Part shown: in pieces, positions 1 to 58,092 of the stretch
How the letters are laid out: each line of letters starts with the position of its first letter
Numbering within the stretch: position 1 is the stretch's first letter
Assembly: GCF_003334255.1 (NCBI RefSeq)
Contig: NZ_QOWU01000031.1
Source: Escherichia coli
Lineage (GTDB): Bacteria; Pseudomonadota; Gammaproteobacteria; Enterobacterales; Enterobacteriaceae
Reading direction: 5' to 3' (one strand)
Length of the DNA: 58,190 nucleotides
Program-made: the position numbers and the translations under genes
The notes under the pieces: generated by a model
Database searches by the model: none
What the model saw: the letters and a program-made list of their open reading frames with translations, nothing else
What the model was told of the DNA's origin: nothing

Positions 1-1
1 G

Positions 2-898
2 TGGCTTGCGCAGTGCGGGCTGACGGTGGAGCAACTGGCCAGACAGGTGGAGCCGGAATACACACCGGCGCGAAAAGCTCATCTTTATCACTGCGACCAC
101 CGGGGACTGCCGCTGGCGCTTATCAGCGAAGACGGCAATACGGCGTGGAGCGCGGAATATGATGAATGGGGCAACCAGCTTAATGAGGAGAACCCGCATC
201 ATGTGTATCAGCCGTACCGTCTGCCAGGGCAGCAGCATGATGAGGAATCAGGGCTGTACTATAACCGTCACCGGTACTACGATCCGTTGCAGGGGCGGTA
301 TATTACTCAGGACCCGATGGGGTTGAAAGGGGGATGGAATTTATATCAGTATCCTTTAAATCCACTACAACAAATTGACCCTATGGGATTATTGCAGACT
401 TGGGATGATGCCAGATCTGGAGCATGTACGGGGGGAGTTTGTGGTGTTCTTTCACGTATAATAGGACCAAGTAAATTTGATAGTACTGCAGATGCTGCGT
501 TAGATGCTTTGAAAGAAACGCAGAATAGATCTCTATGTAATGATATGGAATACTCTGGTATTGTCTGTAAAGATACTAATGGAAAATATTTTGCATCTAA
601 GGCAGAAACTGATAATTTAAGAAAGGAGTCATATCCTCTGAAAAGAAAATGTCCCACAGGTACAGATAGAGTTGCTGCTTATCATACTCACGGTGCAGAT
701 AGTCATGGCGATTATGTTGATGAATTTTTTTCAAGTAGCGATAAAAATCTTGTAAGAAGTAAAGATAATAATCTTGAAGCATTTTATCTCGCAACACCTG
801 ATGGACGATTTGAGGCGCTTAATAATAAAGGAGAATATATTTTTATCAGAAATAGTGTCCCGGGATTGAGTTCAGTATGCATACCGTATCATGATTAA
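2..898 (+). CDS. rhsD: Rhs family protein, 3' portion (5' end upstream of window): conserved Rhs core terminus followed by a variable C-terminal toxin domain
   Basis: Reading frame is open from the window start. Translation contains the Rhs core-end signature (YDEWGNQ...[16 protein letters not shown]...YPLNP...DPMGL) followed by an AT-rich, low-complexity-free tail of about 165 aa. Position next to ybbC/mnmH matches rhsD by K-12 synteny (from memory). Confidence 0.85.
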
Positions 899-937
899 TT
901 TTAGTGCTTTTATTAGTAGGGCCTATAAGGAGATTCA

Positions 938-1306
938 ATGAAATATAGTTCAATATTTTCGATGCTTTCATTTTTTATACTATTTGCCTGTAATGAGACA
1001 GCTGTTTACGGTTCTGATGAAAACATTATTTTTATGAGGTATGTGGAAAAATTACATTTAGATAAATACTCTGTTAAAAATACGGTAAAAACTGAAACAA
1101 TGGCGATACAATTAGCTGAAATATATGTTAGGTATCGCTATGGCGAACGGATTGCAGAAGAAGAAAAACCATATTTAATTACGGAACTACCAGATAGTTG
1201 GGTTGTTGAGGGAGCAAAGTTACCTTATGAAGTTGCGGGTGGTGTATTTATTATAGAAATTAATAAGAAAAATGGATGTGTTTTGAATTTCCTACATAGT
1301 AAATAA
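938..1306 (+). CDS. ybbC: Putative Rhs-CT immunity protein, 122 aa, predicted lipoprotein (signal peptide with L-F-A-C lipobox)
   Basis: 122-aa ORF immediately downstream of the Rhs toxin domain, AT-rich. N-terminus [18 protein letters not shown] has a hydrophobic core and lipobox cysteine. Length and position match K-12 ybbC. Confidence 0.75.
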
Positions 1307-2016
1307 TGCTGGCGCTGATGGATGCGGATGGAAACATTGCGTGGAGCGGGGAGTATGATGAGTGGGGCAACCAGCTGAATGAAGAGAACCCGCATCACCT
1401 GCACCAGCCGTACCGGCTGCCGGGGCAGCAGTATGATAAGGAGTCGGGGCTGTACTACAACCGGAACCGGTACTACGATCCGTTGCAGGGGCGGTATATC
1501 ACTCAGGACCCGATAGGGCTGGAGGGGGGATGGAGTCTGTATGCGTATCCGCTGAATCCGGTGAATGGTATTGATCCATTAGGGTTAAGTCCCGCAGATG
1601 TAGCGCTAATAAGAAGAAAAGATCAACTAAACCATCAAAGAGCATGGGATATATTATCTGATACTTATGAAGATATGAAGAGATTAAATTTAGGTGGGAC
1701 TGATCAATTTTTCCATTGTATGGCATTTTGTCGAGTGTCTAAATTAAATGACGCTGGTGTTAGCCGATCGGCGAAAGGGCTGGGTTATGAAAAAGAGATT
1801 AGAGATTACGGGTTAAATCTGTTCGGTATGTACGGCAGAAAAGTAAAGCTATCCCATTCTGAAATGATTGAAGATAATAAAAAAGACTTGGCTGTAAATG
1901 ACCATGGGTTGACATGTCCATCAACAACAGATTGCTCAGATAGATGTAGTGATTATATTAATCCAGAGCATAAAAAAACGATAAAGGCTTTACAAGATGC
2001 TGGCTATCTCAAGTAA
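1306..2016 (+). CDS. ylbH: Orphan Rhs C-terminal module: about 80 aa of Rhs core-end homology followed by a distinct toxin-like domain; may be silent or pseudogenic
   Basis: Begins at a TAATG stop/start overlap with ybbC. The N-terminal 80 aa repeat the Rhs core end ([11 protein letters not shown]...DPIGL...DPLGL), then an unrelated AT-rich tail follows. This is the classic orphan rhs-CT arrangement. Confidence 0.7.
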
Positions 2017-2233
2017 TCTATCAAAGATGATAATATTTATTTTTGCTATTATAATCATTGTTGTTTTATGCGTAATTACTTATCTTTATTTATACAAAGA
2101 TGAATCTCTTGTAAGTAAACATTACATAAACTATATGGCAATACCAGAAAATGATGGAGTTTTTACATGGCTCCCAGATTTTTTTTCCGCACGTAGCGGT
2201 GGATATATCAATATACACAAATGTAGAAGATGA
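1997..2233 (+). CDS. ybbD: Small membrane protein, candidate immunity protein for the orphan Rhs-CT (more likely start at the internal Met near 2027)
   Basis: ORF directly after the orphan toxin module, with one strongly hydrophobic N-terminal helix ([23 protein letters not shown]). AT-rich. Gene name is by position only. Confidence 0.4.
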
Positions 2234-3002
2234 TTATTTTTTTCTTATTTTTCCCTAACAAATGATGATGGGGGTAGGTTTAAGAAAACATTGACAGTGA
2301 GGGCCAGGGAACAAGTGGCGAAAATCGTATCAAAGAATGATCCAGATACAAAAAAAGTGTGGTGTAAATATGGTAAGATACCAGGGCAAGGGGATGGTGT
2401 AAACCTTTTTTTTGTTGGTGAAATTAATGTTACGCATTATTTTATAACAAATATTGGAGCTGGATTGCCTGATGCTTGTGCAGAGTAATTGCTTGAATTA
2501 AGAGTCTATCCCATATCGAAGTCGTCAACTTCGTAGTGAGGAAAAGTAAAATTCCTGACTGAGAAAAGACATGTCGGCTATTGTGTAAAGCCATATAGCT
2601 CAGACGATGAATATCTACTCGTATTCAGTTGTTTATTGAGGGTGAGTTCCGACCCTGAAACAACAAATAAAATGAACAGTCAGAGAGTTTACATAGAATT
2701 GCACTGGTCTTTTACGATATCTGACATTGTGTAATACATATTCAGCCATGCATTAATTAAAATGTTACGTGTTTAATGTGAGTCCCTATCTGAAAATAAA
2801 TAATCCTTCCGGATTAAAATAAATTCTTGCCGGGAAAGAAAGAGGAAATAAACCATTAGCGGAAAACCAGCGGCACGCCAGGGTGACATGCCCCAGTACG
2901 GCGGCCCGATAGTCCAGGGTTCAGCGGGGGTACTGATAGTCGCGCCGACTGCATCGAGAACTCCATACAACTTTTTACGGAACGTCACCTGATAAAATTT
3001 GT

Positions 3003-3410
3003 TCAGTATCGTCTTTTGAGATTCTCAAGGTTATGGAGTAACCAGACAGAACGGACACCACTGTCGGAGATAAAAACCCCCTGTTTACGCAGCTCGTTGC
3101 TGGCCCGGTGCTGACCATGTGTCGGGAAAGCGACGGCGTAATCAACAACAGCCTGTTCAGTTGCCTCATCGGTACGGTTCTTAAGGTTAGGAGCGCGGCG
3201 ACTACGATTAATCTGCGCATCCACACCGCCTTCAGCGACCAGTTCGCGGTAACGATAAAACGTATCACGCGAAACGCCCATGATTTTACAGGCTTTTGAT
3301 ACGTTGCTGAGTTCTTCAGCCAGATTGAGCAAACCGGCTTTGTGTTTGATGACGGGATTGGCAGTATGAAGCATGAGAGTTACCTCTTGTTTTGGATAAG
3401 GATTCGACAC
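3003..3410 (-). pseudogene. ylbG: Transposase-like N-terminal (HTH) fragment, truncated; catalytic domain absent
   Basis: 135-aa ORF with an HTH-like segment (ACKIMGVSRDTFYRYRELVAEGG) typical of IS transposase N-termini. It ends without any DDE/integrase domain, and the downstream frames are broken. Position between the Rhs island and mnmH matches the K-12 ylbG pseudogene (from memory). Confidence 0.5.
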
Positions 3411-3489
3411 TCATATCAAAACCGGTAACTCTCAACCTTTCAAGGCCATGTGTCAGATCAAGTCGCGACTAATACAAATACGTCCCTCA

Positions 3490-4599
<1,110 letters not shown>

Positions 4600-16391: not shown

Positions 16392-16550
16392 CCCTTACCT
16401 TTAAAGCGGATGCGATTTATATCGCATAAGAGTGCAGTACTCATGCCGGATGCGGCATGAGTACCATATCCTTCCTGAAAATCGCGCAAATTCTATATAT
16501 TGCAGAGATCATGTAGGCCTGATAAGCGAAGCGCATCAGGCAATGTTACA

Positions 16551-16576
16551 AAAAAAGCCACGGTATAAACCGTGGC
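16551..16576 (-). terminator. Rho-independent terminator of the allD-allC-allE operon
   Basis: On the minus strand: hairpin GCCACGGT-TTAT-ACCGTGGC followed by TTTTTT, about 45 nt downstream of the allE stop. Confidence 0.65.
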
Positions 16577-16618
16577 AAAATCCAACATAGCTAAAAATAA
16601 TCAGGCGAGTGGTATGAC

Positions 16619-57496: not shown

Positions 57497-57840
57497 TTAT
57501 GTTGGCGTTTTCTATTCAGTATAGAAGTCGGAGCGGCTGGGCGAGATGCGGAAGTTCTGGAATGTTTCTTTTTTTTGGTGATGGTGAACTGATGGTGCCT
57601 GAAGCAATTTGGCTACTTTTGCAATGTGACAAGTTATGGCAGTGCTGACTGGTGGCGAAGAATTTTGACGATTGAGTCATGCAGAAAAAAACGGGTTCAG
57701 CTTCAGTTGATTAAATGAGGAGTGAGAAGTCCGAAACAGGACTCACTGTATAAATAAACAGCTATTTTGTTGAGGAAGGGTAAGATAACGGCGGGTGCCT
57801 GAAGCTTTCCGGTTTCAGGTTTACTCTGAGGTCTGGAAAG

Positions 57841-58092
57841 ATGAAGCCCCAGGAGATATTTCTATCAACCCTGGGGCTGCCACTCCAAACCCGAACAATT
57901 TGGATGGTAGTCCCTTCTTCGCATGGAGGCAATATAAACATGCTGACGAAATATGCCCTTGCGGCAGTCATAGTGCTGTGTTTAACGGTGCTGGGATTTA
58001 CGCTTCTGGTCGGAGACTCGCTGTGTGAGTTTACGGTGAAGGAACGTAATATTGAGTTTAAGGCTGTTCTCGCTTACGAACCGAAGAAGTAG
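57841..58092 (+). CDS. mokE: mok-type overlapping leader frame of the hokE locus (modulator of killing)
   Basis: 83-aa frame that contains the whole hokE frame at its 3' end, which is the arrangement of hok/mok loci. Confidence 0.5.
57940..58092 (+). CDS. hokE: Hok-family type I toxin, 50-aa membrane peptide
   Basis: [50 protein letters not shown]: one TM helix plus the conserved Hok C-terminal region with Cys. Located next to ybdK as in K-12. Confidence 0.9.

Follow-up and report, generated by a model that had tools for sequence, protein, structure and literature searches.

Duplicated Rhs core-end sequence at the Escherichia coli rhsD locus probably marks the joints of a C-terminal displacement

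The rhsD locus of Escherichia coli occurs in two architectures that differ by exactly 1,196 bp, the interval between two direct copies of Rhs core-end sequence. In one, represented by the window described here (the whole 58,190-nucleotide stretch of DNA that was analysed), a main rhs gene and its presumed immunity gene are followed by an orphan rhs fragment; in the other, a single rhs gene ends in the orphan's tip. The explanation that we favor, and consider reasonably probable, is that the two repeat copies are a pair of joints that C-terminal displacement left behind, and thus a by-product of tip exchange and not a functioning switch. The resident rhs gene at the locus would have carried the ylbH tip together with ybbD, and a newer cassette, composed of a divergent core-end, a DUF4329 tip, ybbC, and a short core stub, would have recombined into the conserved core-end, such that the cassette tip became the expressed tip and the old one was pushed downstream. 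The reverse reaction could also occur, with loss of RhsD-CT and ybbC and loading of the orphan tip onto the core. We infer both the direction, with the fused form being older, and recombination at the core-end as the mechanism; the displacement model is consistent with the layout (Jackson 2009, PMC2935791).

A direct repeat of the Rhs core-end

A repeat search found only one significant direct-repeat family, pairing positions 112–391 with 1308–1587 at an offset of 1196 (280 nt, 80% identity, ungapped). A sequence-only reading of the same DNA had placed diverged copies of core-end sequence at about 140–330 and 1340–1530, judged them by eye to be about 85% identical, and proposed a pairwise alignment. 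The repeat is real and the estimate was close: when aligned, 166 of 191 positions are identical (86.9%) in an ungapped, in-frame match, and the true register of the second segment is 1336–1526, 4 nt away. By blastn the regions of the two copies align over 252 nt at 82.9% identity (E = 2e-73), whereas the best 191-nt identity in a shuffled control has a mean of 35% and a maximum of 39% (200 shuffles), and identity falls to 22–25% on either side of the repeat. Chance or artefact as the source of the repeat is ruled out by the blastn E value, the ceiling of the shuffles, and some 1,800 independent assemblies that have this arrangement. Of the perfect blocks, the longest measures 34 bp (270–303, equivalent to 1466–1499), and a second perfect block of 14 bp, GAGAACCCGCATCA, lies at 188–201 (equivalent to 1384–1397).

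The reading frame is common to both copies, which are 81% identical at the amino acid level, and the differences between them are distributed 15/7/34 over the three codon positions, such that third positions dominate. Each copy codes for the final 93 residues of the Rhs core, up to the PxxxxDPxGL boundary motif, and both match the last 93 positions of the NCBIfam RHS_core profile and all of TIGR03696 (Rhs-associated core domain). The motif is encoded at 362–391 in copy 1 and at 1558–1587 in copy 2, and beyond it identity between the two genes collapses to about 22%. Base composition follows the same boundary, with the core-ends having 54–57% GC, and the tips and immunity genes being AT-rich (28–37% GC).

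Organization of the locus

In an E. coli chromosome that is 100% identical to the window, the annotated order is rhsD, ybbC, a partial RHS core pseudogene, a frameshifted small ORF, ylbG, mnmH, and allS, and the locus is the annotated K-12-type rhsD locus. All of the features considered here are on the + strand. The window opens inside rhsD, the 3' end of which occupies 1–898 (ORF 26–898; 'rhs element protein RhsD' in the RefSeq annotation of the 100%-identical record). The core part extends to 391 and matches NF041261 RHS_core positions 1141–1261, TIGR03696, and Pfam RHS, with copy 1 of the repeat (112–391) forming its end and corresponding to the Rhs-associated core domain. The remainder (392–898, including the stop codon) encodes the C-terminal toxin tip, RhsD-CT, which has 36.5% GC and matches DUF4329 (Pfam PF14220, E 2.5e-37). 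It is followed by ybbC (938–1306), an ORF coding for the presumed 122-aa immunity protein for RhsD-CT (RefSeq 'YbbC/YhhH family protein'). In two metagenomic contigs (L014 and L015), a 122-aa ybbC-matching product encoded downstream of a DUF4329 tip matches PF15631 Imm-NTF2-2, an NTF2-fold immunity family. RhsD-CT and ybbC are flanked by the repeat copies.

The orphan rhs fragment (ylbH in K-12) lies at 1306–2016 as an open frame of 236 codons, which RefSeq annotates as a pseudogene 'missing N-terminus', and the ybbC stop codon and the orphan's ATG overlap (TAATG). It begins with copy 2 of the repeat (1308–1587; RHS_core positions 1169–1261), which constitutes its core stub, and the first ~45 nt of copy 2 are found only in stubs that come after ybbC. 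The orphan toxin tip, referred to here as the ylbH tip, follows at 1588–2016; it has 36.6% GC compared with 57% for the stub, and a Pfam search assigns it to no confident family. Overlapping the orphan stop codon is ybbD (1997–2488), the presumed immunity gene for the ylbH tip, which is disrupted in the window: there is one additional T in the run at 2179–2186 and one T fewer in the run at 2237–2243, with a stop codon between them (2231–2233), leaving 78 codons. The gene is intact elsewhere (163 aa; L005, NF011298), including in the main-plus-orphan strains HB-Coli0, S42, and strain 4.

The properties of the downstream module are those of an orphan or dissociated tip. The 3' core is present through PxxxxDPxGL, and the fragment retains the last 93 of 1,261 RHS_core positions; the N-terminal region and the YD-repeat shell are absent, with ybbC ending immediately upstream. 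The AT-rich orphan tip differs from, and is unrelated to, the DUF4329 tip of the main gene. The same-strand order is a full-length rhsD (1,426 aa in L001), ybbC, and the orphan, after which comes ybbD as a small putative immunity gene. This is the textbook layout of a main rhs gene with an orphan rhs-CT/rhsI module (Jackson 2009, PMC2935791; Poole 2011, PMC3150448).

Both architectures at the same locus

The locus was compared across 5,426 complete E. coli genomes, of which 1,767 have coverage of 80% or more over window positions 1–2600. A 44-mer specific to the orphan stub (1309–1352) is present in 1,857 genomes, in one copy each, and it falls within the orphan fragment in each of the 60 rows sampled. 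RhsD-CT/ybbC is present in 1,895 genomes and is single-copy wherever it is present, whereas the ylbH tip with ybbD is present in 2,863, such that at least 968 genomes carry the orphan tip without the cassette; in these there is no ybbC anywhere in the genome. The comparison with related genomes that the sequence-only reading had proposed therefore turned up the fused structure it predicted: of the 5,426, no fewer than 968 have it at this locus.

In E. coli O157:H7 and eight other genomes, the fused locus has the order ybbP, a single rhs gene ending in the ylbH tip, ybbD, ylbG, and mnmH, and is the shorter of the two by precisely the repeat interval. The fused rhs gene is intact in O157, RM10740, EC1515, ETEC4067, and WP4, and is split by a +G slip in a G-run (equivalent to 1524–1529) in YC21, 503025, 97-3250, and the O103 strain. 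As expected for displacement, the ylbH tip is thus found on a single intact rhs ORF between ybbP and mnmH in O157:H7, RM10740, EC1515, and ETEC4067. We take the fused form to occur in phylogroup E (O157:H7, O55:H7) and in B1 STEC, and the K-12-type form in phylogroups A and B1. Four main-plus-orphan and nine fused genomes were read base by base, with 17 sequences in the alignment; approximately 100–150 main-plus-orphan genomes, which lie outside this sample, have variant left arms.

Junctions in the fused alleles

In seven of the nine sampled fused alleles, the transition from copy-1-like to copy-2-like sequence lies within the 14-bp block at 188–201. Five of them are copy-1-like through 187 and copy-2-like from 202 in the 17-sequence alignment; in O157 there are mixed copy-1 and copy-2 positions at 153–187, and its junction interval is less certain; and the O103 strain has an extra short patch matching the core-end of another Rhs protein (P0039). 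In the two exceptions, ETEC4067 and WP4, the core-end is another one entirely. All of the sampled fused alleles differ from the main-plus-orphan haplotype at positions 106 and 127, and most of them also at 78–94.

We searched for the exact junctions that recombination between the K-12 copies would generate, modeling two crossover positions in assembled genomes, which places rare variants within cultures outside the reach of the test. No exact junction with a crossover at 188–201 is present in the 5,426 genomes (best match 98.7%), and neither is one with a crossover within the 34-bp block at 270–303 (best match 96.3%). The K-12 copies were accordingly rejected as the direct source of the common fused allele, with five mismatches in the best match (78, 83, 88, 106, and 127), and so was any ancestor or product with a crossover in the 34-bp block. 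We also considered the copy-1-to-copy-2 mosaic as an indicator of direction, and dropped it because integration and excision are exact reverses; insertion and deletion leave the same junction, and the direction of the event is therefore unreadable from it.

The cassette haplotype and the direction of change

RhsD-CT/ybbC is near-invariant, with at least 99% identity in 1,891 of 1,896 records, and the four sampled main-plus-orphan strains show no difference over a segment that starts 46 nt upstream of the window and extends into copy 2. Outside of this segment they diverge. Strain 4, S42, and HB-Coli0 have a common upstream core allele that is about 5% diverged from that of the window, two alleles of the ylbH/ybbD region exist that differ by about 4%, and three downstream allele classes (a1, a2, and b) are represented among the four strains. 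The fused alleles have widely differing left arms. Each of the downstream classes is present in both architectures, and within class a2 a +G frameshift is common to an orphan (strain 4) and to fused genes (O26, O103). The occurrence of the downstream classes in both architectures indicates repeated interconversion or allelic transfer, and some of the fused alleles could have arisen by deletion.

The toxin gene, ybbC, and the stub are linked as one haplotype block. In the two metagenomic contigs L014 and L015, the DNA of toxin, ybbC, and stub is identical up to about position 1475, after which there are different, unrelated tips, and these orphans depart from the copy 2 sequence at or just after the 34-bp block. 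A further protein (P0004, known from protein only) has the same stub, after which come another core-end and the second of the two ylbH-tip alleles. A search for a full-length rhs gene with the stub-specific 'MDADGNIAW', which could be a donor or ancestor, returned none in the E. coli genomes, the protein database, or 100,044 species genomes. In the protein search the stub-head peptide occurs at orphan N-termini only, and the degenerate coding pattern of the stub head gave one hit in the 100,044 species genomes, a K-12-like contig mis-binned as Alistipes.

From these sequence comparisons, the fused form is probably the older state and the cassette a young insertion that has spread horizontally. 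This reading draws on the near-invariance of the cassette in varied backgrounds, the recurrence of the toxin/ybbC/stub unit ahead of other orphan tips, the diversity of the fused alleles, the lack of an exact K-12 product, and the phylogroup spread. A more specific version is possible, although we are inclined to doubt it: the segment that begins with the tail of the divergent core-end (~202–391), takes in RhsD-CT and ybbC, and ends with the stub head (1308–1383) may be a discrete, circularly permuted mobile 'tip cassette' that enters and exits a resident core-end by a single crossover. On this reading, stub head and tail together would make up one complete foreign core-end. If correct, it would account for the same unit preceding at least three unrelated orphan tips as well as both ylbH-tip alleles, and would provide sequence-level support for circular intermediates, which were only hypothesised by Jackson et al. 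(PMC2935791).

Alternatives to displacement

A different account makes the repeat a recombinational switch, in which RecA-mediated exchange deletes RhsD-CT and ybbC and arms the core with the ylbH tip, with the natural fused alleles as its products; we regard this as rather unlikely. The sequence-only reading had supposed that recombination would delete the first toxin/immunity pair and fuse rhs to the orphan tail, and much of this stands, in that the copies are direct and in frame, fused alleles of the predicted structure are common, and every downstream class is found in both states, although such alleles are not in themselves evidence of deletion. The same process has been demonstrated for the rhs main and orphan genes of S. 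Typhimurium (PMC3967940), in which evolving cultures yielded recombinant junctions once the locus had been duplicated (Koskiniemi 2014, PMC3967940), and has been proposed for Rhs/CDI orphans (PMC3150448); the notion of switching had thus been published already (Poole 2011, PMC3150448; Koskiniemi 2014, PMC3967940). Whether identity might be too low or too patchy for exchange, a concern of the earlier reading, has a divided answer, as a tract of 191 bp at 86.9% with a perfect run of 34 bp is available for recombination but falls far below the 522 bp at 95% in Salmonella. The minimum homology for recombination in E. coli is about 25 bp, just below the length of the 34-bp block, and with mismatch-repair barriers exchange here is expected to be orders of magnitude rarer. 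Exchange is mechanistically possible, and its product would keep a complete core domain. However, the junction gives no direction, and no fused genome is the exact product of the K-12-type haplotype, given the differences at 106 and 127 and mostly at 78–94. Most of the sampled fused alleles have one junction interval in common, and it is in the 14-bp and not the 34-bp block, which suggests descent from a single event and not recurrent switching. Moreover, strain 4 and YC21, which are closely related, are separated by the insert together with an adjacent SNP patch at 78–127, a pattern that imported allelic sequence explains better than deletion within the chromosome does. A duplication-first route that would keep immunity is also not seen, with the ylbH-tip genomes that lack the cassette (at least 968) being without any ybbC. 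Simple deletion removes ybbC, and since ybbD is frameshifted in this window, a newly armed strain would be without an intact immunity gene. To our knowledge, K-12-type strains have no type VI secretion system, which also counts against a switch. Deletion should therefore be possible but rare here, yielding a toxin without an intact immunity gene, and a working switch in this strain is unlikely. To call the repeat a 'built-in toxin-switching device', as the earlier reading did, goes beyond the evidence, given a junction without direction, a near-invariant cassette haplotype set against diverse fused alleles with no exact K-12 product among them for the two modeled crossovers, homology that is short and diverged, a broken ybbD, and the loss of ybbC.

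Two other explanations concern the retention of the orphan. The stub could be kept for an internal promoter and start site, with the orphan toxin made intracellularly as part of a toxin-antitoxin-like module, as reported for Salmonella. A promoter was found upstream of PxxxDPxGL in the conserved region common to main and orphan genes, and similar E. coli sequences were reported (Starsta 2020, PMC7043789), and the open 236-codon frame of the orphan, with its ATG over the ybbC stop codon, would allow translational coupling. We nonetheless consider this very unlikely at rhsD, as a consensus scan found no + strand sigma-70 site in 112–391 or 1308–1587, and no promoter or terminator signals were found on the + strand of the repeat. 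In addition, ybbD is a pseudogene in this window, a state that would kill the cell were an active toxin produced, and many strains have a +G frameshift in the G-run of the stub with no evident consequence. More improbable still is that the orphan is retained as an immunity store against neighbours with a ylbH-type toxin, and that the repeat is incidental. The intact 163-aa ybbD after the orphan in HB-Coli0, S42, and strain 4 would suit such a role, and CDI systems are documented to express orphan immunity genes (PMC3150448), but ybbD is truncated at 78 codons in this window, and retention of the core stub and the toxin tip would be left unexplained.

Significance and comparison with known systems

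Rhs tips serve bacteria as weapons against competitors, and the way in which these tips are exchanged shapes strain coexistence. The rhsD locus provides a clean natural case in the best-studied bacterium, with the 'before' and 'after' architectures both common in E. coli and with breakpoints that can be mapped to 14-bp and 34-bp identity blocks. It also offers a caution, in that the ability of a repeat to mediate switching is not evidence of switching. The layout, displacement, and recombinational reloading have all been published before, and nothing is conceptually new here; for rhsD and ylbH specifically, we found incidental mentions only in the literature searched. The new points are modest, namely population-level mapping of breakpoints at rhsD, and evidence for the joint movement of toxin, immunity gene, and stub as a single unit.

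The module resembles the orphan rhs-CT/rhsI modules described as 'dissociated tips' (PMC2935791, PMC3150448) in having a partial core 3' end, a distinct AT-rich tip, and a small presumed immunity ORF, in being directly after a complete rhs gene together with its immunity gene, and in having a tip that is fused to a full-length gene elsewhere. The dissociated tips of Jackson (PMC2935791) are near-identical to the main gene, whereas the stub here has 80–87% DNA identity and 81% amino acid identity, and, unlike published orphan modules, its immunity gene (ybbD) is a pseudogene in this strain. Dissociated tips are usually absent from E. coli clade I loci (Jackson 2009, PMC2935791, a statement on clade I).

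As in the Salmonella case (PMC3967940), exchange at rhsD would give a chimeric full-length Rhs protein with the orphan tip. The two differ in that the homology in Salmonella is 522 bp at 95%, compared with 191–280 bp at 80–87% here, in that the evidence here is across genomes and not within a clone, and in that the natural fused genomes hold no second copy retaining ybbC. The internal toxin-antitoxin modules of Starsta 2020 (PMC7043789) likewise have a core-end common to main and orphan genes upstream of the tip; at rhsD, by contrast, no promoter-like site was detected in the repeat and the antitoxin partner is broken. A further parallel is with the cdiA-CT/cdiI orphan arrays of CDI systems (Poole 2011, PMC3150448), in which a conserved motif-encoding stub precedes each displaced toxin/immunity pair and has been proposed as a recombination site (Poole 2011, PMC3150448). 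The CDI arrays belong to another protein family with another delivery route, and their boundary motif is VENN, where that at rhsD is PxxxxDPxGL.

Divergence and frameshifts at the rhsD locus

When the E. coli rhsD-locus sequences (L001 and L003-L013) are compared over the roughly 2 kb of rhsD core that precede the window, this part of the gene proves to be a mosaic of blocks that are 4-7% diverged between strains, far above the divergence typical of E. coli core genes. Because the core is built of such diverged blocks, the comparison suggests that gene conversion among rhs paralogues is frequent.

Within the second copy of the core-end repeat, which is the core stub of the orphan, a run of G residues (1524-1529) has gained one G in the orphan of strain 4, a strain with the main-plus-orphan architecture, and a nearby T>C change is linked to this slip. 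The same +G slip, with the linked change, is present at the equivalent position of the fused rhs genes of L003, L004, L006, L008 and L011, where it cuts off the Rhs core from the toxin tip; the strains with the slipped fused genes include O26- and O103-type STEC, as well as others.

The truncation of ybbD, the presumed immunity gene of the orphan tip, involves two slips 58 nt apart in T-runs, a gain of one T at 2179-2186 and a loss of one T at 2237-2243, with a stop codon between them. The ybbD of O157:H7 carries slips other than those in the window and gives an 86-aa product, which is covered by its own NCBIfam model (NF011297). Further along, ylbG (3003-3410, - strand), a helix-turn-helix, transposase-like pseudogene, is positioned between the rhs element and mnmH, and is found in main-plus-orphan and fused architectures alike.

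One metagenomic contig (L016, CASFSC010000074.1, 3,995 bp) is 99.5% identical to window positions 127-4123. Although assigned to a metagenome-assembled genome of 'uncultured Alistipes sp.', this contig is contamination from E. coli.

Rfam matches and a tRNA gene elsewhere in the window

Two small RNAs match at Rfam gathering scores and adjoin each other on the + strand, ES036 (16478-16520; 38.1 bits, barely over the cut-off) and STnc480 (16546-16612; 87.6 bits). A tRNA-Arg gene with anticodon TCT is located at 36254-36330, and its K-12 counterpart is presumably argU, a known site of prophage integration. Close to the window's end, positions 57793-57948 match the Rfam family of the antitoxin RNA sok (84.4 bits), which implies a putative toxin-antitoxin locus of the hok/sok type.
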